This document shows, piece after piece, positions 2,999 to 61,767 of a stretch of DNA of 64,000 bases. The translations under genes and the position numbers were made by a program. Below the pieces are notes generated by a model that searched no databases, was not told the DNA's origin, and saw only the letters and a list, made by a program, of their open reading frames with translations. The DNA is from Escherichia phage dhaeg. Each line of letters starts with the position of its first letter. Position 1 is the stretch's first letter. The DNA is taken from the sequence record MN850609.1, one strand, 5' to 3'.

Positions 2999-3016
2999 AA
3001 GGAGCCGAAGCTCCTT
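2999..3016 (-). promoter_or_regulatory. stem-loop AAGGAGC-CGAA-GCTCCTT in the 19-20 intergenic / gene 20 leader
   Basis: Perfect 7-bp inverted repeat with a 4-nt loop, no U-run afterwards; sits between the late promoter (3025-3032) and the gene 20 SD. Confidence 0.4.
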
Positions 3017-3024
3017 TATAATTC

Positions 3025-3032
3025 TATTTATA
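3025..3032 (-). promoter_or_regulatory. late promoter TATAAATA upstream of gene 20
   Basis: TATTTATA on plus strand, directly after the gene 19 stop. Confidence 0.6.
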
Positions 3033-3033
3033 C

Positions 3034-3525
3034 TCATTCCCACCAATCGATAGCGAACGTAGATTCGAAAGTTTCTACCTCGTTGTTTGAATCCCAATCC
3101 ATCTGGACTTCACCAACGTTAGTAGGCCATAAGCCATAAATTGTAACTTCTTTAGTCACAGTCTTACCATCACGGTGGAACTGTCGAACAATTGCTTGTT
3201 TCTTATATTCTGCAGGTGCAGCACCGGTAATTTCATTGGTCATACCGTGGCAGAGGTTTTGCCAATCGACAATTGCCTGACGGGTGTCATGGGCATCATC
3301 GTTATAAATGGTAATAGTCCAATCATCAAACGTACGGTCGCCAGCTACGTTAATTTTACGGTTCATGTAGCCAACCGGTACTTTTTCTACAATGCCTGCC
3401 GGCATAGGTGCTGCTTTACATTTAAAGCTAAAGTTTTTACCAAGAAATGGAATTTCCACTTCGAAAAGGTTAGGGCGTGCAAAGTCACCTGACTCAAACG
3501 CACGAGTGATATCTGTCAACTCCAT
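3034..3525 (-). CDS. 19: tail tube protein gp19
   Basis: Second ATG chosen (GAGG SD 7 nt upstream); gives 163 aa as in T4; ...TRAFESGDFARPNLF... matches recalled T4 gp19. Confidence 0.93.
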   Translation of the reverse strand: MELTDITRAFESGDFARPNLFEVEIPFLGKNFSFKCKAAPMPAGIVEKVPVGYMNRKINVAGDRTFDDWTITIYNDDAHDTRQAIVDWQNLCHGMTNEITGAAPAEYKKQAIVRQFHRDGKTVTKEVTIYGLWPTNVGEVQMDWDSNNEVETFESTFAIDWWE

Positions 3526-3543
3526 GGGATGCCTCATAAGTCA

Positions 3544-3564
3544 GTTCCTGGCCACACCAGGAAC
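3544..3564 (-). promoter_or_regulatory. 8-bp hairpin GTTCCTGG-CCACA-CCAGGAAC in the gene 19 leader
   Basis: Perfect inverted repeat between the late promoter at 3578-3585 and the gene 19 start. Confidence 0.4.
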
Positions 3565-3577
3565 GTTCTGATTAATT

Positions 3578-3585
3578 TATTTATA
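3578..3585 (-). promoter_or_regulatory. late promoter TATAAATA upstream of gene 19
   Basis: TATTTATA on plus strand in the 173-bp 18-19 spacer. Confidence 0.6.
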
Positions 3586-3620
3586 ACAGTTGATAAATCA
3601 TATTCCTGATAGTTAATCAA

Positions 3621-3710
3621 TCCCAGGCGCAATTCTACGTGATGTACGCTGTAACCAAACCCATGGTATAATGGTTTTAGGTTCTTTATATTACAGCCTG
3701 GGATAATAGA
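3621..3710 (-). repeat. intercistronic palindromic element, copy A (directly after gene 18 stop)
   Basis: mRNA-sense sequence TAA-TCTATTATCCCAGGC...GCGCCTGGGA; arms 3621-3628 / 3696-3703; same start and core as copy B at 28287-28347. Confidence 0.7.
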
Positions 3711-5693
3711 TTATACTAAAGGTCCAATCAATTCATCAAAATCAGCACCAGTGCTCGTTGCAACGAAGTTCAACGTGATGTAGTTAATAGAACGAGAAGG
3801 TTTTACGTATATATTAGCAATAAACTCGTTACGGTCGATAACCGCAGGGGTGTTCACTGTAGTATCACAAACCACACGTCCTTCATAAATCCCACCAAGT
3901 GCCTTAATACCATCTAAGTACTGAGAAACTTCCATACGGAAGCTTGAACGAGTGAAGTTATCGTTCAATTCAAACAGTTTATATTTAGAGGCATCACCGA
4001 TATTTTTCTTAAGCATGTTGAACAGACGGCGAACGTTAATGTGGTCCATCGGAGATGGAACTTTAGTTGCAGTCTTATCACCAAACAATACGAAACCATC
4101 ACCACCAGCAAAACCAACAACTGGGTTAATAGCTTCCTGGTACATGCGGTCGCGTTGTGCTTGGCGTGGTTCAATTGCCAATTTCAGAACGTTAAGAATC
4201 TGACCACGGTTATAACCAGCAGGAGACATCCAAGGCTGAGACACATCATCAGTACGTGCACACAAACCAGCCATATCAGCAGCCAGTGGTACCCAACGGT
4301 TTACGTCATTATATTTGTCATACTGATATTTATAGTTACCATCAATAGCAGCATAAGTGGTACTGATGTTCATGTTGTTGGCATCGAAATTACCAGCACC
4401 GGTACGCCAGTCAATAAGGTTATCTACTGCACGAGTCAGTGGAACGTTAACCAACAGTCCTTTAGGAGGAGAAATAAATGCTAAGCAATCCTGACGTTCA
4501 TCAGCAATACTCACAACGTGTTTCTGAACAGTAGAAGCCACTTCGTCGCCTTCACCAGCAACAGCACCGGCAATAAGCAGGTTAATATGGAGTGCTTCAC
4601 GATCGGCAAACAAATCCCAACCTTGCATCAAATCGCCTGCAGTAACTTTATCGTTAGCAGAAACACCGCCCATCAGATTAATGATACCGCTGAAGCCTTT
4701 AGGCCAGTTCAAAGAGGTAGCAAAAATATAGTTGGAAGTACCTTTAGCGAAATAGTCGTCAAGATAAATGTTATTACCGTAAACGTCTTTTTCACCTTCT
4801 TTGGTAGAAAGTACGACAGATTCTACGATAGCGCCATCGCGACGAACAATAATTGCGTATTGGTCATCTGTTTGCGGTCCGTAATTAAATACTGCCTTGG
4901 CAATAGAAGCACGGGTACCACCGCCAGGATAAATATCCAGCATTTTAGAAGAACCAGCATCATAAGCGGCTTTGGAAACGATTTCTACTTCCAGAGTAGA
5001 ACCAATTTCACCGGGATAAAGAGCCACTACGCCTGGCATAGCAAATTTCTTAAGAGAAGCTTGGAATTCAAGAGAAGTAATAGCTTCTTCACTATTCTCT
5101 GCTTCAGTCAAAAGAATACCGGAATCCGTAACAATTTTACCTACGGTAATAGTACCAGAAACACCGGAAGATGCAGAAGTAACTTCAGCGGTCCAAGCTG
5201 GGCCAAGGGTAGGATACTGGTTTAAAGAACGTGCATAAGCAATAATTTTTGCTGACGGAATAAACACGGAAAGAATTTTACCGTCTGTATCTACAGAAGT
5301 CACACGACCTTCAGATTCGACTACAGTTTGGTTATATTTAATATTGATTTTATCGCCTACTGCATAGTTGGAACCGGCCGTAGTAATAGTGGTCTCAATG
5401 TTACCAGCGATAGGAGATGCGTTTTTAGCAAATTCGCGACTAACAACACGAACTGTGCGAAGGTCATTACCATACTGGAGGAAGTTCATACCAGACATAA
5501 AGTAATCTGCTACTTCGTTATTAGGACCTCCAAATAAATCAACCAGTTCAACTTCATTAGTAATCTGAGTTACCTGGAAAGCAGGGCCCCACTGGAATTT
5601 ACCTACCAGCGCTGCACGACCCGTTGCGTTACGAACGACAGTACTCTGTACGGACGTTTCTTTGAGCTCAATGCCCGGTGATAATAAAGCCAT
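3711..5693 (-). CDS. 18: tail sheath protein gp18
   Basis: 660 aa (T4 659); MALLSPGIELKETSVQSTVV start; synteny. Confidence 0.95.
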   Translation of the reverse strand: MALLSPGIELKETSVQSTVVRNATGRAALVGKFQWGPAFQVTQITNEVELVDLFGGPNNEVADYFMSGMNFLQYGNDLRTVRVVSREFAKNASPIAGNIETTITTAGSNYAVGDKINIKYNQTVVESEGRVTSVDTDGKILSVFIPSAKIIAYARSLNQYPTLGPAWTAEVTSASSGVSGTITVGKIVTDSGILLTEAENSEEAITSLEFQASLKKFAMPGVVALYPGEIGSTLEVEIVSKAAYDAGSSKMLDIYPGGGTRASIAKAVFNYGPQTDDQYAIIVRRDGAIVESVVLSTKEGEKDVYGNNIYLDDYFAKGTSNYIFATSLNWPKGFSGIINLMGGVSANDKVTAGDLMQGWDLFADREALHINLLIAGAVAGEGDEVASTVQKHVVSIADERQDCLAFISPPKGLLVNVPLTRAVDNLIDWRTGAGNFDANNMNISTTYAAIDGNYKYQYDKYNDVNRWVPLAADMAGLCARTDDVSQPWMSPAGYNRGQILNVLKLAIEPRQAQRDRMYQEAINPVVGFAGGDGFVLFGDKTATKVPSPMDHINVRRLFNMLKKNIGDASKYKLFELNDNFTRSSFRMEVSQYLDGIKALGGIYEGRVVCDTTVNTPAVIDRNEFIANIYVKPSRSINYITLNFVATSTGADFDELIGPLV

Positions 5694-5722
5694 TTTGAAT
5701 CCTCTTGGTTATGCTTTATTGT

Positions 5723-8032
<2,310 letters not shown>

Positions 8033-10702: not shown

Positions 10703-12772
10703 TTATGGTGCTGAGTTTAAAGTCACAAAATCAGACAATAATACCCATGCGTTATCAACCAGAACGTACGGGAGTCCGTCTGCAGCAGGAGCCACCGGCG
10801 GACGTTTAGCTAATTCTGTTTCTAAGGCTGTAATTTTACCTTCGGCGGTGGTTAAACGGGTTCCTAAATCGGCAACTTTATCCGATTCAACCTTAACTGC
10901 GGCTAAATCGGACTGAAGGGTAGTTATTTTACCTTCAGCTGTTGTTACACGAGTTGTTAAAGGAGCTATTTTAGCGGTATCTAATTTAATATCAGTAATT
11001 TCGCCTTCATTAGCTGCTACTCGCCCGGTTAAAGTAACGATATCACCTTTATTCTTGGTTATATCGGCTTTAATAGGGGTTAATTGTGATTCTATAGAAC
11101 TCACATCTAAAGCCAAAGCCGTAACATCAGAATCGGTTGTATCCGTCTTGGTTTCCAATGCGGTTATTTTGCCATTAATAGTTACGTCACTTTCTTCCAA
11201 AGCAGTAATACGATTATCTTGCTCAGTGTCTTTGGATTTTAACAAAACAACATCGGCTTTAATTTCTCCTACTGAAGTGTTTAAAGCACCAGTTCTGGTA
11301 TCAAGAGAAGAAATGGAGGCGTCATTAGTATCGACTCTAGCCGTTAAGGCTGATACCTTACCATCAGTAACCAATAAAGAAGCTTTTACTGCATCGATTT
11401 CTGTAGTACCATCAAGGATTTCCGTCCATGCCGAATCCTTACGTCCATACAATTTACCATCAGTAGGTGCTTCACCCAATTTAGTAGGCATCTGAGCTTC
11501 AAGGCCTTTAACCGAGTTTATTAATCCTCGTTCTTCTACGGTACTACCGTTAGGGTTGGTTCCTTCAATTTGGTTGGTGATTTTAAGAATAGAACCTTTG
11601 ATGCCTGTTTGGTTATTACCAATTTCGGCCTGCAAATCCTGAATAGTAGAGGCTGAAGTATTGCCTTGAGTTGTAAGGTCGTTCAAACGTTTATTGATTG
11701 TTCCTGCTGCCGGACTCACATCCGCACCGATTTTACGGTCTATATCAGAAACCTGGAAACGAAGCCCTTCAGATGAACTAGCACCAACTATGGTTTTTAA
11801 CTCATTAACATCAGTACGCAAGCCGCCCAATCTGCCGTTAATAGACGTAGGGGTATCGGCAGTACCGATGGCAGTTTCTACTGCAGTAACCCTAGGGACC
11901 AATCCATTATTAACAGTGTTTTCTAAAGTAGACGTTTTAGTTTCTAATGTAGTTACTCTGGTATCAATAGAGCCCTTATTAAAGCCTATACTGGTTTTGA
12001 TAGAATCTATCGATTCATTAAAGTTTACGGCTGCCGTTTCGAGAGCTGAAATTCTAGTATAAGCAGGTTGTTTACCTACCGTATCAATATGTGGACCAAG
12101 TTCTTCACGAATTTCGTTAAGTTTAAGCCCAAGTTGACCTACATCAGAATCTTCATAATTCTTTTCAAGGGTATCTATACGTTGCGAATGGTCGACAATA
12201 GCACTGGTATTATCCATAATACGACGTTTCATACCGGTGGCTTCAGAAGTTTCACCGGGAGGAAGCGGCTGGCTGTTTATATCTTGGTTTGCATAATGGC
12301 CAATTTCTGATTTAAGAAGATTTATATTTTCTCTAACAGTGAGATACGGGCCATCTAAAGACGGGTCATAATAACCGACATCTTCTTCTAAAAAATTAAA
12401 ATTAACTGTTAAGTCGCCTAAGTCCTTTTTAGTCTCGGAAGCCTTTTCATCTACAGCCAATATATCGACACGGTTCTTTTCAATTTGCTGAATAACAGCC
12501 GTATCAGTAGAAATATCAAGGGCTTCATTAATCAAATTAACGTTATCCACAAGCTCGTTAATTTTGTCTTTAGAAGCTATGCTGTTTTCTTCTAATCTAA
12601 CTACGTTAGTTTGTACTCCTAAAGCAGGGGCATTCAAATTACCGTCGTGACCGTATTTAGTCGTGGCTCCTTCAATACATTCGCCATTGCGTATCCAACG
12701 GATACGCTCTTGGGATGCATCAGGTACACCATCGACAAACGGAAGTTCTTTAATACTCAGTTTGTCAATCAT
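10703..12772 (-). CDS. wac: fibritin (whisker antigen control), extended form with two foldon-like modules
   Basis: 689 aa (T4 487); N-terminus ...LPFVDG.P....RI.WI.NGE..., mid-part ...EIGNN..GIKG......GTNPNGSTVEERGL.NS... as recalled for T4; C-terminus DGLPYVLVDNAWVLLSDF resembles the foldon. Confidence 0.92.
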   Translation of the reverse strand: MIDKLSIKELPFVDGVPDASQERIRWIRNGECIEGATTKYGHDGNLNAPALGVQTNVVRLEENSIASKDKINELVDNVNLINEALDISTDTAVIQQIEKNRVDILAVDEKASETKKDLGDLTVNFNFLEEDVGYYDPSLDGPYLTVRENINLLKSEIGHYANQDINSQPLPPGETSEATGMKRRIMDNTSAIVDHSQRIDTLEKNYEDSDVGQLGLKLNEIREELGPHIDTVGKQPAYTRISALETAAVNFNESIDSIKTSIGFNKGSIDTRVTTLETKTSTLENTVNNGLVPRVTAVETAIGTADTPTSINGRLGGLRTDVNELKTIVGASSSEGLRFQVSDIDRKIGADVSPAAGTINKRLNDLTTQGNTSASTIQDLQAEIGNNQTGIKGSILKITNQIEGTNPNGSTVEERGLINSVKGLEAQMPTKLGEAPTDGKLYGRKDSAWTEILDGTTEIDAVKASLLVTDGKVSALTARVDTNDASISSLDTRTGALNTSVGEIKADVVLLKSKDTEQDNRITALEESDVTINGKITALETKTDTTDSDVTALALDVSSIESQLTPIKADITKNKGDIVTLTGRVAANEGEITDIKLDTAKIAPLTTRVTTAEGKITTLQSDLAAVKVESDKVADLGTRLTTAEGKITALETELAKRPPVAPAADGLPYVLVDNAWVLLSDFVTLNSAP

Positions 12773-14979: not shown

Positions 14980-16790
14980 TACGCAATCCTCACCCAGCGA
15001 TAAACGGTTGTATATGGAGGCAATGTATTAATTGGAATAGGCGTTGTAGATTGCTGCTTGTTTATTGTAGCTTTATCTTCACGATATTTGGTATAAGCAG
15101 GACCTTGTGCATCCGGGTCTACCAAACATCCACCGATAACAATAGGGCCATTATCATCAGCAACTAATACCTTGTCATCTGTATTAAGTTCAGGAACATT
15201 TTCATATTTAATCGAAATATTATGAGAACCACCTGTTCCACCTGCGGTAGATTTAGGAATACCAGAAGAATCCAAATCGTTATTGTTCGCATTGAACAAT
15301 GAATCTGCATCCGGCGACCAACCTACAAGGAAACTATCAGATAAACGTTTCCAACTACCCATACCCATATAAGTTGCAGGGTTATTAGGGTTCACCGTGT
15401 TCTCGTAAATTGTCCCTATTGGATGGAACAAATCGAACATCACTGCAGCCGTATTAATAGAAACTTCGGATTCTGCAACAGGTTCAAAGTTAGGAGAAAA
15501 TGGATTATCCACATCAGTAATACGAACCTGGCCGGTTAAAGACACCGAAGGACCTTGAGAAATGTAGATATCATTTGTAGTATCCAAAATCTCATCAATA
15601 GTCATGGTAGTACCAATATCATTATTATACCAAATTACGGTAAGGATATCACCATGTTCTAATTTACGTCCAAATTCGAATGATTCGATTTTATCGTCAT
15701 CTGCAATATTCAAAATATAATCAGATTTAGATTGTGTCCATACACCACCCGAATCAGCACAAAGAGCTGCATCATCAGTATCAACACCTTCACAATAGAA
15801 AGCAGGGAACCCTGCAGTACCAGCTTGGTGCAATAAAGTACTGTTAAGCATTACCTGGCAAGCATTAGGGTTAATAGGGCTTGTAGGAGAAACATTTAAT
15901 TCCACCGCGGTAATAGTCTGTATGGTAGAAAGGTCTAATACTACTTTAGAACCGTTAACTGTGGTTTCATGGGTAAGGGTTTTATCTAAAATAGTAATAT
16001 CACGACGATTATAAGAACTACGCCATTGGGCCAATCCATCGTTATAGGATTTAATGATTACTGTATCACCGGCTTCACATGGATATTTCAAACGGATATC
16101 TTTACCGTTCAATTCAACCAATTCGCCTGGGTTAGCGCCTGGGCTACCGAACTCTGAAGTGGCTTCATCAAATATATCATCTACACCATAAAACAAGGTG
16201 TTACCACGTTGAATTACGCTAAGACTAGAAATATTATAGGTTAATCCTGGGAAAATATCCAAGAAATCGGTTTGGCCTTCAGTAGCAATAAACTGTTTGG
16301 TTGCTACAGTAGCGAGGTCGTTATTTGGAATACGGTTAACTTGCTTGTTCTCAACATATTCCCAGCGACCCGGAGCACAATAGACAAGTTCAAGGTCAGC
16401 AAAGTTACGGGCTATTTCAACCTGTACAGCAGAGCCTTTAATCGTATCACCTGGAGCAGGTATAATTGTTACAGGGTTAGCTTGCCAAGAAGAATAAACG
16501 TCACGCAAACGAATTACAAAGTTATATTCTGAAGGGGTACCTTTAGGAAGTTGAACGTTAATCCTTCCACCCTGGGTATTCAACGTATAGCTATGACCCA
16601 TAACAGCATTAAGTAAAGGACCATCTGCAGTAGAATATTGTTTCCAGGCACCAGCAGCGTGAGGATTATCTCCATCACCTAATTGATAGTATAACTCGTT
16701 AAAGTTATTATTGATTTTTAGACCACCTGCGCGCAGGTAATCTCCGGAGCCATCATCAACGGCCTGGCCTATTTTTAATTCTTGTTTCAT
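14979..16790 (-). CDS. 10: baseplate wedge protein gp10
   Basis: 603 aa (T4 602); MKQ...G..VDDG.GDYLR.GG.KIN.NF.ELYY.LGDGD and C-terminal ...PY.TVYRW.RIA match recalled T4 gp10. Confidence 0.95.
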   Translation of the reverse strand: MKQELKIGQAVDDGSGDYLRAGGLKINNNFNELYYQLGDGDNPHAAGAWKQYSTADGPLLNAVMGHSYTLNTQGGRINVQLPKGTPSEYNFVIRLRDVYSSWQANPVTIIPAPGDTIKGSAVQVEIARNFADLELVYCAPGRWEYVENKQVNRIPNNDLATVATKQFIATEGQTDFLDIFPGLTYNISSLSVIQRGNTLFYGVDDIFDEATSEFGSPGANPGELVELNGKDIRLKYPCEAGDTVIIKSYNDGLAQWRSSYNRRDITILDKTLTHETTVNGSKVVLDLSTIQTITAVELNVSPTSPINPNACQVMLNSTLLHQAGTAGFPAFYCEGVDTDDAALCADSGGVWTQSKSDYILNIADDDKIESFEFGRKLEHGDILTVIWYNNDIGTTMTIDEILDTTNDIYISQGPSVSLTGQVRITDVDNPFSPNFEPVAESEVSINTAAVMFDLFHPIGTIYENTVNPNNPATYMGMGSWKRLSDSFLVGWSPDADSLFNANNNDLDSSGIPKSTAGGTGGSHNISIKYENVPELNTDDKVLVADDNGPIVIGGCLVDPDAQGPAYTKYREDKATINKQQSTTPIPINTLPPYTTVYRWVRIA

Positions 16791-17650
16791 TATAATGGAA
16801 CTCCAATAGTTTGGGTATCTACGACTTTAATTGCTAATCTCATAGGGGTTTCAGATGATGCCGTAGCCACTATATAGTTAGAGGTATCAAATTTAAAATC
16901 GAGTTTGTAAATTTCGTCTTCATCAGTGGTCTGTCCACGACGGATAACAGCATATTCGGTGGAATATATTTTTTTAGCTTGGTTATCCATAAACAAAAGA
17001 TATTCAGAAGCTTTATAAATGGTTTCATTAGCATTTACTGCGGTAACTAAAAGCTTGACCAAAGAATATTGACCTGAAAAAACCACCGGTATATCTCTAG
17101 GTACGTTAGAAATGTTATATGTTCTATTTAACGGCACTCGTTTATCACCAAACATGCTCTCAATAGAATAATCCCATACAGCTATACCGTTGATGTCACT
17201 TACACACCATAATAGAACTCTAGTATAAGGAGTTACTATTCTTAGGGTTGATGTAGGATGGTTTAAAAACGAATCCAATATACGGATTTCAAGATAGTTG
17301 GTAGCTGAAATACTTCCATTAGAGTTAATTATTTCAATACCTTCACCTACGGCTCCTTTTACCGTGGTTAACACTATAGAACCTGTAGAAGCATCAATAT
17401 CAACCAAAGAACCAAGGTCAACAGAACTTGCTTGGTCGGTATCGCCAAATTTTTGATAGTATCCAGTGGCATGTAATTTCTGACCGGTAGTTTCGCCTGT
17501 AAGAGCGGTTTTACGTTGGTCACCAAAGGTATTATAGATGTTGTTTAAGTCGGTGTTTAGTTTAACACCACCGTCATAAAGAATGTCGCCGGTGCTAGCA
17601 TTACCAATTTCACCAACGTCAATTAGTAATTTACCAGTTTGCTTAATCAT
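16790..17650 (-). CDS. 9: baseplate wedge / long-tail-fibre socket protein gp9
   Basis: 286 aa (T4 288); ...GEIGNASTGDIL.DGG.K.N.D.N.IYN.FGDQRK... matches recalled T4 gp9. Confidence 0.93.
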   Translation of the reverse strand: MIKQTGKLLIDVGEIGNASTGDILYDGGVKLNTDLNNIYNTFGDQRKTALTGETTGQKLHATGYYQKFGDTDQASSVDLGSLVDIDASTGSIVLTTVKGAVGEGIEIINSNGSISATNYLEIRILDSFLNHPTSTLRIVTPYTRVLLWCVSDINGIAVWDYSIESMFGDKRVPLNRTYNISNVPRDIPVVFSGQYSLVKLLVTAVNANETIYKASEYLLFMDNQAKKIYSTEYAVIRRGQTTDEDEIYKLDFKFDTSNYIVATASSETPMRLAIKVVDTQTIGVPL

Positions 17651-17676
17651 AGGTATGCCTCATTATTGATATAATG

Positions 17677-17684
17677 TATTTATA
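17677..17684 (-). promoter_or_regulatory. late promoter TATAAATA upstream of gene 9
   Basis: TATTTATA on plus strand in the 8-9 spacer. Confidence 0.6.
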
Positions 17685-17690
17685 CCCCCG

Positions 17691-17710
17691 AAAGGGCCTT
17701 GCGGCCCTTT
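17691..17710 (-). terminator. terminator hairpin after gene 8
   Basis: AAAGGGCC-TTGC-GGCCCTTT directly after the gene 8 stop. Confidence 0.65.
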
Positions 17711-17711
17711 A

Positions 17712-18719
17712 TTAGAATTCGAAGATAATGTTAATTTCTTCGGTTTGGTCCATGGAACGAATAACCGGAGGACGGTTTTCCATATAAATCATTTCACCGG
17801 AGTGGCGGGAGAGGTCTATAACGTCATAGTACTCTTTTTCGGCTTTAATGATCGGGTCTGATGGGTGGGCTTTAGCTTCCAATGGGTTGGAAATTATTGA
17901 AAGTTGTCTAAATCCTTTATTCCCTGGCAAACTAAATTCAGGGAAATAAACTGAATCTAAGAATGCTTTAAAACGAATAGTATTGCCTTTAATACGATAA
18001 ATCAATCCGTAATCGTCTTGTTGCCAAGTGAGGTTATTCTCGTATCCCCAACGTTCAGGGTCTTCAGCAATTTCTTCCGGCCATGGAACTACAATATATT
18101 CATTGGTACAACGGTTGATACTTACATCAGGTGGAATCTCATAAAGATATTCCCAAAGATACCCATCGCCGGTATCAACCATACCTTCGGTATCGCCTTG
18201 TCCTGCTGGAGCTTTAACTGAAGGGACGTTTGCGGTCCATTTACCACCAAGTTTAATACACTCGGTTTTATTATCAAGAGATAAAATAGAGCATGCTCCG
18301 GATTCAGGAACATCCACACAACGATAAACCATCCAACCTGCACCAACATCAGTACGGTTTTGCGGCTGGCTATTCGCCACTACAATTTCACCAATCTGGA
18401 ATGTGAAAGGATTAGGATAAGAGGTATCGCCCCAGTCTTTGCGAGGAACAACACAATCCAACATACTCTTATAAACCTTAACACAACCCATCATGTTTGT
18501 CCAGACGTCCTCTACGCCCTCAGAATCATCTACAGGATACGGTGGAGCAAAGCCTGGGTCGTTTTCGTTAGGAGCCCATGGTTGGGCTCTCCCGAAAGAT
18601 ACATACATCGTGTTCTGGTCTTCACCATCACCGATTGTTCTGTAAAAGTTGTACATCTTTTCCGTTCTAAATTTAGAAGTAACAATAGAACGATATATTA
18701 CTGTTGAATTAATCATCAA
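17712..18719 (-). CDS. 8: baseplate wedge protein gp8
   Basis: 335 aa (T4 334); ...VIYR.IVTSKFRTEKM.NFY... and ...HSGEMIYMENRPP... match recalled T4 gp8. Confidence 0.95.
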   Translation of the reverse strand: MMINSTVIYRSIVTSKFRTEKMYNFYRTIGDGEDQNTMYVSFGRAQPWAPNENDPGFAPPYPVDDSEGVEDVWTNMMGCVKVYKSMLDCVVPRKDWGDTSYPNPFTFQIGEIVVANSQPQNRTDVGAGWMVYRCVDVPESGACSILSLDNKTECIKLGGKWTANVPSVKAPAGQGDTEGMVDTGDGYLWEYLYEIPPDVSINRCTNEYIVVPWPEEIAEDPERWGYENNLTWQQDDYGLIYRIKGNTIRFKAFLDSVYFPEFSLPGNKGFRQLSIISNPLEAKAHPSDPIIKAEKEYYDVIDLSRHSGEMIYMENRPPVIRSMDQTEEINIIFEF

Positions 18720-27012: not shown

Positions 27013-27462
27013 ATGGCTTACTCAGGGAAATTTAAACCTACAAACTTACAAAAATATAAAGGTGACTGGAAGAAAATCCAATATCGTTCCTCTTGGGAAG
27101 CATGGCTAATGAGATGGCTTGATAATCATCCTAATGTAGTCCAATGGAATTCAGAAGAGGTTGTGATTCCATATTTTTGTAATGCTGAAGGAAAGAAACG
27201 TCGATATTATATGGACTTCTGGGTTAAGTTTGATAATGGTCAACAATTCTTTTTTGAAGTCAAACCTTTTAAAGAGACCCACCCTCCAGCGATTCCGGTA
27301 AAAATGACCACTGCCGCTAAAAAGAGATATATTAACGAACATTATACTTGGTCTGTGAATAGTGACAAGTGGAAAGCCGCTAAAGCTACCGCAGATAAAA
27401 TGGGTATCAACTTTAGATTGATTACCGAACATTCACTGAAAAAATTAGGATGGAAAGGATGA
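27013..27462 (+). CDS. 4: head completion protein gp4
   Basis: 149 aa; MAYSGK..P.N..KY.GD.KKI.YRS.WE...[15 protein letters not shown]... matches recalled T4 gp4. Confidence 0.95.
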
Positions 27463-28286
27463 GTATATTTTCCTACATCAATGAGGCCACTGAAACCACA
27501 AAAGGTTCTAAGCCTACTCGTTCAGAGCAACAATGGATAGCTTTAGGTGTTGAATATGCCAAAGCTAAGGCCAAAGGTGTCTCGTCTAAGAAATTCGCTG
27601 AAGATAAAGGCATTAAGTATTCTAGCTTTACATCTGCGATGTCTCGATACTCGAGTCGAATTAAAACTGCCGTACAGGTCGAAAAACTTCAGAAGAAACC
27701 TGGCAATAAATTGACCAAAGCCGAACGTCAATTAATTTTGGTGAATAGTTTTAGAAAGAGTATTCGTGATAAGATTGCTAACGAAGGCGCTGCTGTAAAC
27801 AATAAATCAGCTAAATGGTTTACAGAAACATTAAAGAAAGGAATTCGTGGACACCAGGTATCTAAACCATCTCCTGGTAAGCTTTATGCTTATATCTATG
27901 ATGCTAAACACAAGGACACATTACCCTACTGGGACAAATATCCTTTAATCATTTATCTTGGGCTCGGTAAGCATAATCTGATGTATGGGTTGAACTTACA
28001 CTATATTCCGCCTAAAGCACGCCAACAATTTCTAGAAGAATTGCTGAAGCAATACGCGAGTACGCCTACCATTACGAACTCGACCAAATTAAAAATTGAT
28101 TGGAGTAAGGTAAAAGGATTTGCTGGTGCTGACGCGATGATTAAGGCTTATATCCCTGGAAATATCAAGGGACCTTTAGTAGAGATAAAACCTTCTGATT
28201 GGGCTAATGTCGTAATGATGCCTCTCCAGCAGTTCATGTCTAAAGGTAAGCGTTACTCAGCTCAGAAAGTATGGAAGAACGCATAA
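27459..28286 (+). CDS. 2: DNA end-protector protein gp2
   Basis: ATGA overlap with the gene 4 stop; 275 aa (T4 274); synteny 4-2-3. The track ORF starts 9 nt earlier at 27450. Confidence 0.88.
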
Positions 28287-28347
28287 TCTATTATCCCAGC
28301 CAGTTATTGAATGGAACAGACCTAGGACCATTATACACTGTCTGGGA
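28287..28347 (+). repeat. intercistronic palindromic element, copy B (directly after gene 2 stop)
   Basis: TAA-TCTATTATCCCAGCCAG...CTGTCTGGGA; arms 28295-28303 / 28338-28346 (9 bp, 1 mismatch); core ACCTAGGACCATTATAC shared with copy A. Confidence 0.7.
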
Positions 28348-28368
28348 CTTAAGCAATATAGGAATCCT

Positions 28369-28959
28369 ATGAACGGTTTATTTAACCAAACTAACACTAC
28401 CAACTTTATCTTAGAGGTTAGTGACTCAGGAATGACGCAGTCATTCAAATTGAACGTACAAGATGTAACACTACCGGGTATCCATATTCCTATCTCAGAC
28501 GTCCCCGGATCGACCCAGGGCATACATCGTGCTAAGCTGCCAGGTTCTACAGTAGAATTCGATCCCTTGATTGTAAACTTTCTTGTAGACCGTGAGTTGA
28601 AATCATGGATGGACGTTTATAAATGGATGCTATCATTAAACAACTATGTAACACATGAATCCGAAGCCTGGCATCCTAAAGGCTTGCCTGAAGCGATTAC
28701 CCTCCATATCCTTGATAACAACAAACAGAAAATCGTAATGAGCATTCATTACTACGGCGGTTGGCCATCCGACTTATCGGAAATCCAATACTCGTATAAA
28801 GAAGATTCTGACCCTGCTATAATCGCTACGGCAACATTCAACTTCAAGTCGTTTGCTGTAGAAATAGATGGTACAATAGTTACAGGTCGTCCACAAATTG
28901 ATTCGTATGCCGAACAACGTGTGGCTCGTATGTCTATGCATCCATCTATGAGAAAATAA
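28369..28959 (+). CDS. 3: tail completion / tube terminator protein gp3 (by position)
   Basis: 196 aa ORF between genes 2 and 1, as gene 3 is in T4 (176 aa); I cannot recall the sequence well enough to confirm. Confidence 0.7.
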   Translation: MNGLFNQTNTTNFILEVSDSGMTQSFKLNVQDVTLPGIHIPISDVPGSTQGIHRAKLPGSTVEFDPLIVNFLVDRELKSWMDVYKWMLSLNNYVTHESEAWHPKGLPEAITLHILDNNKQKIVMSIHYYGGWPSDLSEIQYSYKEDSDPAIIATATFNFKSFAVEIDGTIVTGRPQIDSYAEQRVARMSMHPSMRK

Positions 28960-29712
28960 TGAAACTAATATCAATTGTAGGAATCAAACGTAGCGGTAAG
29001 GATACCGTTGCTAACTATGTAATTGAGAATACGGATTCCGTAAAATTCCAACTCGCTGGTCCTATTAAAAAGTATCTGGCTGAAGCTTATGAATACATAT
29101 CTGATGACCCTGTATTTGACCGTAGCTATATGCCTAAATTAGATTTTAATTGTTTTGAAGGTATCGGTTATGACCGTGAAGAAATAATTCCTTTAAAACC
29201 GTATGATGTGGTTGATATTTTTGAACATGCTATTGTTAAGCTGAATAATATCCTTCCTATTCCAGGAATTGATGTTCGTATCGCATATCATTATGGTCTT
29301 ACCCCGGTCCAGTATCTGTCTGAAGAAACAAAAGACCAGCTATTTGAAGTAATAAATAAAAATAACAATTGGTCAGTACGTCGTCTCATGCAGACCCTTG
29401 GGACTGATATTATTGTTAACCAATTTGATAAGATGTATTGGGTTAAGTTGTTCGCTTTAGACTATTTTGATAAAATATACTCTGATGCGAAATACTATGT
29501 CGTACCTGATGTTCGTCAAACACACGAAATTGATTCACTCAGAGCGATGGGTGCTACGATTATTCATGTAGTTCGCGCTGAAACCGGTCAAGTACAAGAC
29601 TCGCACATCACTGAAGCGGGTCTACCAATTTTACCTGGTGACGTTGTTATTGAAAATAACGGCACTCTTTCTGAACTATACACTACTATTGATAAATTAT
29701 TAGGAAATAAAA

Positions 29713-29720
<8 letters not shown>
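28959..29720 (+). CDS. 1: deoxynucleoside monophosphate kinase gp1
   Basis: 253 aa; MKLI...G.KRSGKDT.A...QLAGPIK...WSVRRLMQ.LGTD.IVN.FD.MYWVKLFALDY.DK... matches recalled T4 gp1. Confidence 0.95.
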
Positions 29721-42190: not shown

Positions 42191-42219
42191 GTTTACATCT
42201 CCGGTAGGCATGATACTAT
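42191..42219 (+). promoter_or_regulatory. T4-type early promoter cassette (denV)
   Basis: GTTTAC-17-TACTAT; part of the 63-bp repeat 42185-42247. Confidence 0.75.
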
Positions 42220-42245
42220 AGACCTATCAACTACAGGAGATTAAA

Positions 42246-42662
42246 ATGACTCGTATCAACCTTACCTTAGTATCTGAATTGGCTGACCAACACTTAATGG
42301 CTGAATATCGTGAATTGCCACGTGTTTTCGGTGCAGTTCGAAAGCATGTTGCTAACGGTAAACGTGTTCGTGATTTTAAAATCAGCCCTACTTTTATCCT
42401 TGGTACAGGCCATGTCACATTCTTTTATGATAAGCTTGAATTTTTACGTAAGCGTCAAATCGAGCTTATAGCCGAATGTTTAAAACGTGGCTTTAATATC
42501 AAGGATACTACGGTCCAGGACATTAGTGATATTCCTCAGGAATTCCGTGGTGATTATGTTCTTCACGAAGCTTCTATCGCTATTTCACAAGCCCGTTTGG
42601 ATGAAAAAATTGCACAACGTCCTACCTGGTACAAACATTATGGTAAGGCGATTTATGCATAA
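42246..42662 (+). CDS. denV: endonuclease V (pyrimidine-dimer DNA glycosylase)
   Basis: 138 aa; [33 protein letters not shown] matches recalled T4 DenV (138 aa). Confidence 0.96.
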
Positions 42663-44320: not shown

Positions 44321-44349
44321 GTTTACATCTCCTGTAGACGTGGTACTAT
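44321..44349 (+). promoter_or_regulatory. T4-type early promoter cassette (regB)
   Basis: GTTTAC-17-TACTAT. Spacer ATCTCCTGTAG (44327-44337) is perfectly complementary to CTACAGGAGAT (44361-44371), which contains the regB SD. Confidence 0.75.
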
Positions 44350-44377
44350 AGACCTATCAACTACAGGAGATTACAAA

Positions 44378-44836
44378 ATGTCAGAAATTAATTCAGAAGT
44401 ATTCATCCGCCGCAACAAATTACGTCGTCAGTTCGAAACCGAATTTCGTGAACTTAACGCGTCCATCAAAAAAGCCGCCATTAAGAGCGGTGTCCCAGCT
44501 TTCTTTATTAAGTACTCTAATCACTTGTTGGACCGTGCTATCCAACGTGAAATTGACGAAAAATATGTTTTCTCTTTGTTCAAGAAGCTCCATAATCATG
44601 TTAAAGAAATCCATGAATTTTTAATCCAGGAGCCTCTTCCTGACATAGAATCTGAAATTGTCCCAGGTAAAGTGTATCGTCCACTGCGTCTCGAGATTAC
44701 CGATAAAACCTTATGGTTGGGTATGACCGTAGATCGTAAACATCCTGATAAAGGATATTCATTAAAATGTCGTATGGCATTTGTTAATTCTAAACGTTTA
44801 GAAGGTAAAACCAGCACGAAAGTAATCTATCTTTAA
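44378..44836 (+). CDS. regB: RegB site-specific endoribonuclease
   Basis: 152 aa; ...EVFIRRNKLRR.FE.EFR...HLLDRAIQREIDE.YVF.LF... matches recalled T4 RegB (153 aa). Confidence 0.93.
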   Translation: MSEINSEVFIRRNKLRRQFETEFRELNASIKKAAIKSGVPAFFIKYSNHLLDRAIQREIDEKYVFSLFKKLHNHVKEIHEFLIQEPLPDIESEIVPGKVYRPLRLEITDKTLWLGMTVDRKHPDKGYSLKCRMAFVNSKRLEGKTSTKVIYL

Positions 44837-48455: not shown

Positions 48456-48484
48456 GTTTACATCCTCTAGGAACGTGATACTAT
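48456..48484 (+). promoter_or_regulatory. T4-type early promoter cassette
   Basis: GTTTAC-17-TACTAT + AGACCTATCAACTAATGAGGAGAATAAAATG. Confidence 0.75.
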
Positions 48485-48512
48485 AGACCTATCAACTAAT
48501 GAGGAGAATAAA

Positions 48513-48743
48513 ATGAAAACCATCACCAACCTGAAAGTTATCGATATCGCTAAAGCTTCTAAAGCACTTAAAGTTAAAGCTGAAGATTTTGAAAACGCTA
48601 CCTTTGCTATTATCGAACAAAACGGTAAAGTAACTGGTTTAGAAGTTTATGAAGCTACTAAGTTCCAATCACAGCCTAAAATGGTTATTGGTACTAAATC
48701 TGTAGCTATCGAAAAAGCTTTGGCATTATTCGAAAAAATTTAA
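48513..48743 (+). CDS. hypothetical protein
   Basis: 76 aa. Confidence 0.6.
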   Translation: MKTITNLKVIDIAKASKALKVKAEDFENATFAIIEQNGKVTGLEVYEATKFQSQPKMVIGTKSVAIEKALALFEKI

Positions 48744-53017: not shown

Positions 53018-53359
53018 ATGTTCGAACAATTTAGTTATGACCTTATAAAAACAGAGTTGAAATACTCTAATGCCATGAAACAGTCTATTGAAGACTATGA
53101 TAATGAATTTAAACACCAATTCGCCGAGAAGGTTTACAAAACCGATTGTGAAGAAGGAGACTACAAGAGACTGGCCTTGGCCGCGAAGACCCAAGCCTTA
53201 ATAAATCTAGACCGTAAGCAGGTTAAGTTGGCAGGCGACTTCAGAGATGAACTCTGCGCCATCAGGAACGAATACCTTATTCGTATTAAACACCAACGGA
53301 AAGAGAACACCCAATCCGCATGGTTTAGTGGGCAAGCCGGTGAAAAAAGTTTTTATTAG
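53018..53359 (+). CDS. hypothetical protein
   Basis: 113 aa. Confidence 0.55.
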   Translation: MFEQFSYDLIKTELKYSNAMKQSIEDYDNEFKHQFAEKVYKTDCEEGDYKRLALAAKTQALINLDRKQVKLAGDFRDELCAIRNEYLIRIKHQRKENTQSAWFSGQAGEKSFY

Positions 53360-53361
53360 TT

Positions 53362-53390
53362 GTTTACATCTCCAGTAGAAATGATACTAT
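53362..53390 (+). promoter_or_regulatory. T4-type early promoter cassette
   Basis: GTTTAC-17-TACTAT + AGACCTATCAACTAATGGAGG. Confidence 0.75.
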
Positions 53391-53416
53391 AGACCTATCA
53401 ACTAATGGAGGTTATC

Positions 53417-53941
53417 ATGAACGCTAAAGATATTTTTTCACTGATTAATTTTAACAATGGTAATTTCAAATCTGAAAAACAAAGCAAGTTCTTTAACGAC
53501 GTTGCTTGTGGTAATGAGATTACCGTATCTGGAGGAGAGATTTACAAAAGCCGTTGGAACTGGATTGTTATCATCGATTCAGTTGGTATTGTAGAGCTCT
53601 ATAAAAACACTAACAAAAAACGTACTCTTCACTGGAGTCGTGAAACCAATCAAGCTTATCAAGCCGAGCGTAATAAACGTTTAATGCCTACTGAATCTGA
53701 CCTGGCAAACGTTAAATCAGATATCGCTTATTTTGATAACTTGATTGCCGAACAACAAGCGGTTATTGATAAGTTTGACGAAATCAAAGCTTGTAAAGAG
53801 ATTCCTGAATTTATGCGGGAATCAGTAAACGAACAGTATGCCCTCACTTCAGGTCGTATCGAGCAGTACAAATCACAACGAGCTGAACGCCAAGCTCTGC
53901 TTCAGAAATTTGAAGAGCGTTTAAAGACGGTTCTCGCATAA
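53417..53941 (+). CDS. variable-head / C-terminal coiled-coil protein 1
   Basis: 174 aa; C-terminal IAYFDNLIAEQQAVIDKFDEI...QRAERQALLQKFEERL. Confidence 0.6.
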   Translation: MNAKDIFSLINFNNGNFKSEKQSKFFNDVACGNEITVSGGEIYKSRWNWIVIIDSVGIVELYKNTNKKRTLHWSRETNQAYQAERNKRLMPTESDLANVKSDIAYFDNLIAEQQAVIDKFDEIKACKEIPEFMRESVNEQYALTSGRIEQYKSQRAERQALLQKFEERLKTVLA

Positions 53942-53942
53942 A

Positions 53943-53967
53943 CGCTTTATACCAAGGATGGTATAAT
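53943..53967 (+). promoter_or_regulatory. candidate middle promoter (MotA-box-like CGCTTTA-12 bp-TATAAT)
   Basis: Spacing fits T4 middle promoters; core GGTATAATGGTTCTAGGTTCTT also occurs at 3664-3686. Confidence 0.5.
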
Positions 53968-54004
53968 GGTTCTAGGTTCTTAATTACTTACTGAGGAAAT
54001 TATT

Positions 54005-54850
54005 ATGTCACAAGCAATTAATCAAATTCGTTCTGAAGTTAAAAAAGTTGTTAAATTTGGTCGTATTCCTAGTTCTAAAGAAGTGGTTGAAAAGGTCCTA
54101 TATATGATGTGGGACAAGTTCAATGTTTGTACTGTTAAAGATGACTTTATTAAAATCTTTGACAAGACTAAAGGTTCGTTTACGTTAGAAGACCGGGTCA
54201 TGAAAACTCTTCGTAAAACAGGTATGTTGTCTCGTGCTAATGCCAAAATTATTCTTAAAAATTATAACAAAGGCTACGACCTTTATGGTCGTTTAATCCC
54301 GGCGATGTCATTTGGTGAAGTTGTTCAAGACCTTCATGCCAACCAACGACGTTTACTGGCTCTTGGCGCTCGACTTGCAAAAGGTCTTGATAAACAAATG
54401 ACATTTAAGACTAACGGTTCAGGTGATTGGATTATCTTTAATATTGTTAACCACCCTGGAAATGAAAATGAGTATACCATTTCGACTTTTAGTGGTTGTC
54501 AATACGACAACTGGAAGTTCCATCTGCGCTTGGCCCTGTCTGAATTAGAACAACACGGTGTTCTTAGTTTTGGTGATGCTGAAACTGGAGTAGGTCAGCG
54601 TATTAAACTTTATAAAATTAAAGACCTGGCTGAAGAGCATTCAGAACAAGCTCCTAAAATGGAACCTGTACCAGTGCGCAGCAATGAGAAACATCAGGCC
54701 CAGATTGAGTATTTTAGCAATTTGCTTACTTGCTTGAATGTTACAATCCAACAACAAGATGATGAGATTTTCCGACTCTCTGGTCTTAATGCCAAAGCTA
54801 AGGCTGAACGCCAGAAATATATCGATATCCTAAATCTTCTTAAGGATTAA
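54005..54850 (+). CDS. variable-head / C-terminal coiled-coil protein 2
   Basis: 281 aa; C-terminal IEYFSNLLTCLNVTIQQQDDEI...AKAERQKYIDILNLL. Confidence 0.6.
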   Translation: MSQAINQIRSEVKKVVKFGRIPSSKEVVEKVLYMMWDKFNVCTVKDDFIKIFDKTKGSFTLEDRVMKTLRKTGMLSRANAKIILKNYNKGYDLYGRLIPAMSFGEVVQDLHANQRRLLALGARLAKGLDKQMTFKTNGSGDWIIFNIVNHPGNENEYTISTFSGCQYDNWKFHLRLALSELEQHGVLSFGDAETGVGQRIKLYKIKDLAEEHSEQAPKMEPVPVRSNEKHQAQIEYFSNLLTCLNVTIQQQDDEIFRLSGLNAKAKAERQKYIDILNLLKD

Positions 54851-61398: not shown

Positions 61399-61437
61399 GG
61401 TCCCACGGATTATAAATTTTAAACTGAGGAAATTATT

Positions 61438-61767
61438 ATGTCACAAGCTATTAAAAACGTACTGAACTCTTTCGCTTTCGATAAAGTTAACGAACTGATG
61501 AAAACCGGCTTTGTAACTCCTCAGGTTCTTGACCAATGGGTTGCTGAACTGTTACCAATCATGCACTCTAAAGACCAAAAAATTGGTAAGAACGGTATTC
61601 GTGAAATCCTGGTTCAATATATTCTCGACGAGTTTGATGTGGCCGCCTTTGGTGTCGAATCTAAAGCTTGGCAGCCGGGTGAAATCACAGACAAAACCAT
61701 CCGTCGTATGAAGAATCAACGTAAGAAAAAATTCGTTGACCTGAAAATTGTTAAGGCTGCTAAATGA
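61438..61767 (+). CDS. hypothetical protein
   Basis: 109 aa; the TIR ACTGAGGAAATTATTATG is identical to that of 54005. Confidence 0.6.
   Translation: MSQAIKNVLNSFAFDKVNELMKTGFVTPQVLDQWVAELLPIMHSKDQKIGKNGIREILVQYILDEFDVAAFGVESKAWQPGEITDKTIRRMKNQRKKKFVDLKIVKAAK

Follow-up and report, generated by a model that had tools for sequence, protein, structure and literature searches.

The closest described counterparts of the elements analyzed here are the PeSL cassettes, in which a promoter and a stem-loop lie within about 100 bp, several related copies occur per genome, and signs of copying and recombination are found. The stem-loop sits upstream of, between or overlapping the promoter boxes (Arbiol 2010), and a variant carrying a Mot box, the PmSL, was described in phage nt-1 (Arbiol 2010; Comeau 2014). 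PeSLs end in a Shine-Dalgarno sequence and a start codon and follow the direction of local transcription. They are concentrated in hyperplastic early regions, in association with insertions, deletions or replacements, and structural regions reportedly contain few of them. The MotA/AsiA-type middle promoters of phage T4, which work by sigma appropriation, consist of a near-perfect −10 element, often preceded by TGn, and a MotA box of consensus (a/t)(a/t)(a/t)TGCTTtA located 12 ± 1 bp upstream of it, near −30; they have no −35 element and start at +7 from the −10. Prereplicative RNA complementary to T4 late genes has been known since the 1970s; this 'anti-late RNA' was defined by hybridisation, to our knowledge no promoters or role have been assigned to it, and a literature search for the term retrieved no text. 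The T4 origins oriF (oriuvsY) and oriG combine a middle promoter, whose transcript forms an R-loop primer, with an A+T-rich unwinding element located within about 50-100 bp downstream. In oriG, also named ori34, a MotA promoter within late gene 34 produces RNA opposite to the late transcript, and origins of this type are switched off with the change to late transcription (Kreuzer & Brister 2010).

The window analyzed here, 64,000 nucleotides of Escherichia phage dhaeg (MN850609.1), holds three copies, hereafter A, B and C, of a promoter-like element. A 3-kb probe (window positions 3000-6000) was 99.9% identical to the reverse complement of Escherichia phage dhabil (MN850621), and the phage belongs to the JS98 group of Dhakavirus. 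The gene motA was found in dhabil (MN850621 31589-32224), and MotA orthologs are present in Dhakavirus and in members of most lineages carrying copy B, the Dhakavirus protein being only about 50% identical to that of T4. The early promoters of dhabil are themselves PeSL-like. Prereplicative genes occupy the plus strand of the window from about 30 kb onward, and the late genes faced by copies A (gene 18) and B (gene 2) were assigned as follows, an annotation check agreeing with the identities that the original prediction had given to both:

3711-5693, minus strand: gene 18 (sheath)
3034-3525, minus strand: gene 19 (tube)
27013-29720, plus strand: genes 4, 2, 3 and 1
27450-28286, plus strand: gene 2
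28369-28959, plus strand: gene 3

All three copies resemble T4 middle promoters in the −10, the distance to the box, the frequent TGn, the missing −35 and the expected start. Unlike those promoters, neither A nor B is followed by a gene, and each is directed back toward the 3′ end of a late gene. Of the kinds described so far, the PeSL/PmSL cassette comes nearest: like it, A and B combine a promoter with a stem-loop inside about 100 bp, exist as several related copies in the genome and carry signs of copying and recombination; they depart from it by being antisense to local transcription, by their orphan state and by lying in conserved late operons, behind stop codons, instead of in a hyperplastic region. 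Copy C does end in the Shine-Dalgarno sequence and start codon of its downstream gene, as PeSLs and PmSLs do.

Copy C lies between an nrdC.8 homolog (53405-53941) and a 281-aa gene with its ATG at 54005, and comprises:

53943-53949, plus strand: MotA box CGCTTTA, with a 12-nt spacer to the −10
53959-53967, plus strand: extended −10 TGgTATAAT, with TATAAT at 53962-53967
53974, plus strand: predicted start, by homology to PnrdC.7 of T4

Comparison of a 70-nt query with T4 showed that its first 40 bases (53935-53974) were identical at 39 of 40 positions to the nrdC.8/nrdC.7 spacer, the flanking coding DNA being less conserved than this 40-base core. Among the 58 MotA-dependent middle promoters that have been identified by experiment is PnrdC.7, which starts at 53325 (Hinton 2010, Table 1); this T4 position is an A seven bases past TATAAT. 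Judged by orthology, copy C is a genuine middle promoter, as had been proposed when the sequence at 53943 was read as driving the gene at 54005. Because it is orthologous to an experimentally mapped MotA-dependent promoter, the core common to A, B and C represents a proven −10/start region.

The relationship of A and B to this promoter was evident from shared sequence. The window contains the 24-mer ATGGTATAATGGTTYTAGGTTCTT at exactly two places, 3663-3686 and 53958-53981, with 23 of 24 bases matching, and zero occurrences were expected from 100 dinucleotide-preserving shuffles; GTATAATGGTYYTAGGT is found in exactly three copies (A, B and C) in each sequenced Dhakavirus genome in IMG/VR. TATAAT is perfect in all three copies, TGn additionally being present in A and C, and the string TATAATGGTYY(T/C)A is common to A, B, C, PnrdC.7 and P34i, a GG discriminator following the −10 in A (3673-3674) and B. 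These matches upheld the proposed homology of A and B, antisense to genes 18 and 2, to the sequence at 53943. The sequences quoted for A and C in the original prediction are present, with end coordinates that were each one base too high: the 43-nt sequence spans 3647-3689 and the 42-nt sequence 53943-53984.

Copy A is placed within a stem-loop behind gene 18, with the following features:

3620-3704, minus strand: element A, a branched stem-loop of the late (gene 18/19) strand that begins 7 nt past the gene 18 stop
3690-3704 paired with 3620-3633, minus strand: outer stem, from RNA folding
3671-3683 paired with 3653-3664, minus strand: inner hairpin, from RNA folding
3647-3653, plus strand: MotA-box-like CGCTGTA, with a 13-nt spacer to the −10, matching 4 of the 6 specified positions of TGCTTnA
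3664-3672, plus strand: extended −10 TGgTATAAT (TG at 3664-3665, TATAAT at 3667-3672)
3673-3679, plus strand: GG discriminator and predicted start at 3679, with T at −1 and G at +2
3663-3686, plus strand: core shared with copy C, 23 of 24 bases identical
3690-3714, plus strand: stop-proximal block shared with copy B, 22 of 25 bases identical
3585..3578, minus strand: gene 19 late promoter TATAAATA, which on the late strand comes just after element A; context, outside the element

The gene 18/19 spacer folds with −47 kcal/mol (z = −3.76), a value that none of 200 shuffles equalled, and the TATAAT of copy A spans the loop and the 3′ side of the inner hairpin. An Rfam search of positions 3300-3900 returned no family. 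An intrinsic terminator was ruled out for A and for B: neither was flagged by the terminator scan, and element A has no U-tract, the late strand 3′ of its hairpin reading GGGAUUGAUUAAC.

Sequence similarity to copy C continues more weakly upstream of the core of A, to about 3632 (p ~0.02, shuffles). At the other end, the score of the block shared with copy B was reached by none of 2000 shuffles; this block includes an exact 16-mer, CTGGGATAATAGATTA, present in two copies, whose complement TAATCTATTATCCCAG consists of the stop codon and 13 nt. From these similarities, copy A appears to be chimeric: its core and upstream part are C-like, and the block next to the stop is B-like. Two other origins for parts of the element were considered and rejected. 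The stop-proximal block GGGATAATAGATTA might have been the relic ribosome-binding site and start codon of an antisense gene, but its alignment with the 5′UTR of copy C was not significant (p ~0.08) and no ORF is conserved; and a leftover of a homing-endonuclease cassette disagrees with the ORFs inserted elsewhere in the gene 18/19 spacer, which have the sense (late) orientation. The restriction of A to one lineage and the insertion of endonuclease genes into this spacer in other lineages are a partial echo of the plasticity of PeSLs.

Copy B occupies the spacer between genes 2 and 3:

28294-28347, plus strand: stem-loop of element B on the sense strand, starting 8 nt past the gene 2 stop
28355..28349, minus strand: consensus MotA box TGCTTAA, not part of the hairpin and separated by 13 nt from the −10 downstream of it
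28335..28330, minus strand: −10 TATAAT, followed by GG and a predicted start at an A (28323), antisense into gene 2 and then gene 4

Element B folds with −22.2 kcal/mol (z = −2.15). On the minus strand the copy reads tatTGCTTAA, 13 nt and TATAATGG, and in a strict scan only one other site of the window likewise combined a perfect MotA box with a perfect −10. The original prediction had located the TATAAT correctly, antisense into gene 2, and had missed the box.

To rank these sites against promoters of known function, a weight matrix made of two blocks (the box, and the −10/start region) was trained on the 58 mapped T4 middle promoters. Applied to the T4 genome, assembled from four loci, it placed known promoters at 33 of the top 40 sites out of 35,296 candidates, with PuvsY in the first position. 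In the window, copies C, B and A ranked first, third and fourth, respectively; when the most similar T4 promoters (PnrdC.7, P34i, PuvsY, P24.3 and PnrdD) were removed from training, they ranked first, third and fifth of 127,920 positions. Copy B scored 21.0 bits, and copy A 19.2 bits with the full matrix and 17.8 bits with the held-out one, versus a median of 16.2 bits for the training set. The score of A was unevenly distributed between the blocks. Its −10 region, with 13.8 bits, exceeded most mapped T4 middle promoters, whereas its box reached 5.5 bits compared with 9-11 for good boxes. B and C fit the T4 consensus box; the CGCTGTA of A has two mismatches, the central T included, and fails the strict consensus scan, and its bases could also serve as an arm of an alternative stem, GCTGTAA/TTACAGC. 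The MotA box tolerates most single changes (Hinton 2010). Scans for sigma70 −35/−10 promoters around A and B gave nothing above the level of shuffled sequence, which ruled out a canonical −35 promoter for either.

In 47 of the 58 mapped T4 middle promoters, transcription starts 7 nt past the −10, and this rule reproduces the published starts of PnrdC.7 (53325), PuvsY (115371), P1 (75393) and P34i (153011). Applied to the three copies, it gives predicted starts at 3679 (plus strand) for A, 28323 (minus strand) for B and 53974 (plus strand) for C, those of A and B being exactly the positions that had been proposed.

Conservation of copy A was assessed within and beyond the genus. In seven Dhakavirus genomes, CGCTGTA and TGgTATAAT are invariant, and none of the seven variable sites of the element falls in the box, TGn, −10 or start region. 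Since the same bases form both promoter and hairpin, this conservation does not separate one from the other. BLAST with the A element found Dhakavirus only (50 records), with no conservation at the DNA level beyond the genus, and analogs in other genera were found only by direct reading of the gene 18/19 spacers of 79 T4-like loci. The Gaprivervirus analog consists of ATGCTTTTA, 13 nt and TATAATGG within a CCGTAGAACC/GGTTCTACGG stem, and that of Marfavirus of TTGCTAAA, 13 nt and TGgTATAAT within a CCTGAAG/CTTCAGG stem; in both, the stems are unlike that of copy A and the boxes are better. Among the 79 loci, those of T4 and of most other genera show nothing but a plain GC hairpin after gene 18, and the antisense strand of the T4 spacer scores only 7.9 bits with the matrix. 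Being absent from most genera, the A-type promoter is dispensable.

The arrangement of copy B has a much wider distribution, being found also in T4, RB69/JS09, Gaprivervirus, Winklervirus, Karamvirus, Gelderlandvirus, the Enterobacter CIP9 group and Pectobacterium PM2. The T4 ortholog is located as follows:

T4 75968-75974, plus strand: MotA box, with the −10 at 75988-75993 and the predicted +1 at 76,000

All orthologs have a perfect TATAAT with G after it and, 12-13 nt before it, GCT(T/A); the discriminator is GG in all of them except Gelderlandvirus. When the orthologs were aligned on TATAAT without gaps, information content was highest at the GCTT box, at TATAAT, at the next GG and at the T/A start, the last two peaks matching the discriminator and start-site preferences of E. 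coli RNA polymerase. The GCTTAA is fixed between Dhakavirus and the CIP9 group, with both flanks diverged. The hairpin, by contrast, changes place: the −10 falls inside it in Dhakavirus, CIP9 and PM2 and overlaps it in Gaprivervirus, whereas it lies wholly downstream in T4, RB69, Karamvirus and Gelderlandvirus, and encloses the entire promoter in Winklervirus. Such variable placement of the stem matches the PeSL subclasses (Arbiol 2010). Covariation in the B hairpin was limited to one compensated pair (A-U, G-U and G-C across relatives), a result reached by 69 of 500 shuffles and hence not significant. The original prediction had named, as a sign that the similarity reflected RNA structure only, a promoter core that is lost where the hairpin arms are conserved; what was found in the gene 2/3 spacer is a box, −10 and start region kept across genera despite differing sequence and position of the arms, an outcome in favour of the prediction.

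Based on this pattern, copy B is predicted to be a conserved antisense promoter. For RB69, the site appears independently on the plus strand as Pm:79256 in the supplementary table of predicted promoters of Nolan et al. 2006, with no comment. Krischvirus is absent from the listed MotA hits, and its gene 2/3 spacer holds a 44-aa antisense ORF with a sigma70-type promoter. No conserved ORF was found downstream of A or B, a 14-codon ORF at copy B not being conserved. Some matches to the consensus in T4 reportedly yield no transcript. The list of 58 experimentally identified middle promoters includes none of the T4 site at 76,000, A and B (Hinton 2010).

In T4, matrix ranks two and three, just behind PuvsY, correspond to unassigned sites, both on the plus strand: the B ortholog at 76,000 and a site at 11,897, where the same module lies directly behind the early gene modA and antisense to it. 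Both share GGTATAATGRRTCTAAGTCC with the PuvsY/oriF promoter; the two strongest unassigned MotA-type sites of T4 are near-copies of the oriF promoter that point against the surrounding genes. Taking all sites together, the module follows gene 2 in at least nine lineages (T4 among them, at 76,000), gene 18 in three genera and modA in T4. From the sequences compared, a common layout of tail-end antisense promoter modules can be proposed, pointing toward the stop of the faced gene: a MotA box (or TGn-extended −10), a perfect TATAAT, GG, a T/A start followed by G, and a stem-loop. Copy A would be a member of this family of backward-facing promoter modules of T4-like phages.

On balance, we lean toward reading copy A as an inverted, grafted middle promoter of the PnrdC.7 type, set within the late-strand stem-loop behind gene 18 and active in the antisense direction before replication. 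Activity of copy B is held with higher confidence than that of A. The sequences show homology, promoter quality, the pattern of conservation and the presence of motA; from these we infer that antisense RNA would be initiated at A and B, and how it would be timed, disposed of and used. Prereplicative sigma70 RNA polymerase, remodelled by AsiA and MotA, would open promoter A with the help of TGn and, from 3679, transcribe the plus strand antisense into the 3′ end of gene 18; at B, minus-strand transcription from 28323 would run antisense into genes 2 and 4. Because each start lies within the 3′ arm of the hairpin, the A and B transcripts themselves could not form it, while transcripts of either strand that cross the element from outside could do so. 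Conversion of the polymerase to its late (gp55) form would silence both promoters, the stem-loop acting from then on upon late mRNA only. As for the use of the antisense transcription, the RNA or the head-on polymerase might curb premature or read-through expression; the early repEA/repEB transcripts of T4, as judged from annotation, would run leftward toward genes 4, 2 and 3. Alternatively, the antisense transcript might serve as the primer of an R-loop origin. Downstream composition does not decide between these two options.

A rather unlikely alternative is that copy A is a silent relic of recombination between cassettes of the PeSL/PmSL type, in which a fragment of a PnrdC.7-like promoter was copied into a B-like stem-loop, and that it is retained only as a stem-loop of late mRNA with a role in stability, processing or attenuation, yielding no antisense RNA of consequence. 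It would account for the chimeric make-up of A, for the degraded MotA box, for the unusual stability of the late-strand fold and for the fact that nearly all T4-like genera keep some hairpin at this place, most of them without a promoter. Substitutions in copy A of IME341 and copy B of EcoM005 also fit it, since they give G-U pairs on the late-sense RNA and A-C mismatches on the antisense RNA, and T4-like genomes are known to contain degraded 'half' PeSLs (Comeau 2014). However, one substitution in copy B of IME281, JS98 and VR5 favours pairing on the opposite strand. A hairpin also has no need for TGnTATAAT, GG and a T/A-G start in register, yet in copy A none of these varies, and its score exceeds the median for real promoters; Gaprivervirus and Marfavirus hold a full MotA box and −10 within different stems, and for B it is the promoter, not the hairpin, that is conserved across genera.

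Improbable, and more so than a relic, is that the antisense promoters are active not in gene silencing but as minor or cryptic origins of the oriF/oriG type, in which an R-loop formed in A+T-rich DNA immediately downstream primes the leading strand; the T4 site at 76,000 would then fire toward genes 4-53-5, in the oriE region. The promoter of oriG is likewise a MotA promoter, reads against a late gene, has a similar −10/start sequence and shares GTGTATAATGGTCC with copy B; the T4 sites at 76,000 and 11,897, as stated above, resemble the promoter of oriF. The region downstream of 76,000 contains 46% A and 29% G+C (T4 mean 0.35) and shares AACAACAGAA with that downstream of oriG. An R-loop needs only a promoter and an unwinding element, active origins lie near strand-switch points, and no middle promoter was known near oriE (Kreuzer & Brister 2010). 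In the window, however, G+C from +1 to +70 is 0.40 for B and a mildly low 0.33 for A against a mean of 0.39, a composition that is not distinctive. Also counted against an origin function is that oriF and oriG are reportedly the only T4 origins to have emerged from the classical plasmid screens. Furthermore, the shared core is not specific to origins, since PnrdC.7, an ordinary gene promoter, carries the same one.

A chance likeness of AT-rich spacers to the promoter consensus, to which the 12 copies of TGNTATAAT alone in the window (5.2 ± 2.3 expected) and the shuffle-level sigma70 scans might point, is effectively refuted by the 23/24 match with none expected, the three copies in every Dhakavirus genome, ranks 1, 3 and 5 of 127,920 and the cross-genus orthologs.

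With antisense activity of A and B as the favoured reading, the timing and strand of classical anti-late RNA are as expected of their predicted transcripts. It is tentatively proposed, as a rather doubtful extension, that a conserved class of orphan, backward-facing MotA-type modules behind stop codons may constitute the long-missing anti-late promoters, working as head-on silencers or R-loop origins, with 76,000 contributing to oriE. The module is not specific to late genes, and the anti-late purpose given to A and B in the original prediction is too narrow a label because the T4 copy behind modA opposes an early gene; the known precedent of an antisense middle promoter in a late gene is oriG. 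If active, the modules would give the best-studied developmental programme of any phage a further, antisense layer or additional origins, and would extend the PeSL/PmSL mobile-cassette idea to conserved structural operons.

Exact predicted starts are available for comparison with transcript data: 3679 (plus strand) and 28323 (minus strand) here, and 76,000 and 11,897, both on the plus strand, in T4, for which directional RNA-seq sets exist, including stranded data at 5 min for wild type versus a motA-amber mutant (Patterson-West et al. 2018). By default, featureCounts counts reads in an unstranded manner. Active modules would lead such counting to mislabel late genes as early or middle. A T4 time course (0-20 min) was built from directional libraries counted with featureCounts defaults (Wolfram-Schauerte et al. 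2022). In its RNA classes, with counts taken as unstranded, gene 2 is 'middle' and the flanking genes 3 and 4 are 'late' (Wolfram-Schauerte et al. 2022, Table S2). The class of gene 2 hints at an active antisense promoter at 76,000, as it matches what this would predict; a sense promoter inside gene 4 could be an alternative cause. Gene 18 of T4, where there is no A-type promoter, is classed as 'late', and genes 34, 35 and 37 are classed as 'middle' (Wolfram-Schauerte et al. 2022, Table S2), gene 34 being the one that holds the antisense promoter P34i (oriG).

When sites in T4 were ranked with a weight matrix built from its mapped middle promoters, the two best-scoring unassigned MotA-type sites were the 76,000 site (predicted +1, plus strand), which is the counterpart of the antisense promoter in the gene 2/3 spacer of the window, and a copy behind modA, the third near-copy of PuvsY, the oriF promoter, in this genome:

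AF158101, 11,851-11,910, plus strand: near-copy of the PuvsY/oriF promoter (loci L163 and L161 of the T4-like phages)

Both sites are absent from the list of 58 mapped T4 middle promoters (Hinton 2010). The copy, which reads AAATGCTTTA...TGGTATAATGAATCTAAGTCC, lies just behind the stop codon of modA and is directed antisense into this early gene.

The default settings of featureCounts, when used on a directional T4 library, are taken here to be unstranded. Counting with default settings was applied to a directional RNA-seq library by Wolfram-Schauerte et al. (2022; PMC9697503, Methods 2.8), who called 215 T4 genes 'early' and whose Table S2 places late genes 2, 11, 34, 35, 37, wac, 54 and 38 in early/middle RNA classes. 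Unstranded counting may explain both the number of 'early' genes and the classes given to these late genes.

In the gene 18/19 spacer of Gaprivervirus (loci L091 and L093), the sense-strand late-promoter consensus TATAAATA lies within the hairpin loop, between the antisense MotA box and its -10, so that late and middle promoters overlap back to back. The same spacer carries insertions of ca. 650 bp in other T4-like phages (loci L080, L085, L100, L104 and L111), encoding ORFs of 200-243 amino acids in the late (sense) orientation; among the carriers is Dhakavirus vB_EcoM_005, with the insertion placed between the promoter-bearing stem-loop behind gene 18 and gene 19. Going by their CxxC motifs only, our guess is that these ORFs encode putative HNH-type homing endonucleases.

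The gene 2/3 spacer of Krischvirus FL20 (locus L072; 473 bp) contains an antisense 44-aa ORF with a -10 of the form TACTAT. It also has a GC hairpin bearing runs of T/A, which adjoins the gene 2 stop and resembles a bidirectional terminator. In Tulanevirus Aes508, the corresponding spacer holds an antisense 16-codon ORF behind GTTATAAT.

Further promoter-like sites were found in the window:

17651-17711, plus strand: TGaTATAAT, in the spacer between ORFs 17712-18719 and 16790-17650 (both minus strand)
28884, plus strand: high-scoring, sense-oriented middle-promoter candidate in the 3' end of gene 3
31908, plus strand: high-scoring, sense-oriented middle-promoter candidate, rank 2 in the window

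The candidate at 28884 probably corresponds, as an ortholog, to P1 of T4. The TGaTATAAT at 17651-17711, which lies beside the GC-rich hairpin AAAGGGCCTTGCGGCCCTTT, shares bases with the complement of a late promoter (TATAAATA); this TGaTATAAT lacks a correctly spaced MotA box and may be a chance occurrence.

Early promoters form a family of at least ten members (30598-53426) with the layout GTTTACA, 17 nt, TACTAT, then AGACCTATCAA. Examples are:

44321-44380: early promoter
42191-42250: early promoter
48456-48515: early promoter
53362-53421: early promoter

In several of them the -10 is flanked by an inverted repeat whose downstream arm holds the following gene's Shine-Dalgarno sequence (CTCCTGTAG ... 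CTACAGGAG). This arrangement resembles promoter-early stem-loop (PeSL) cassettes, and it also brings to mind the T4 design in which the ribosome site is sequestered in read-through transcripts.

Two plus-strand genes, starting within 53977-54021 and 61410-61454, share 84% identity over these 45 nt, including the ribosome site and first codons (ACTGAGGAAATTATTATGTCACAAGC), and are probably paralogous. Upstream of the latter gene, TATAAATT is found instead of a middle promoter.
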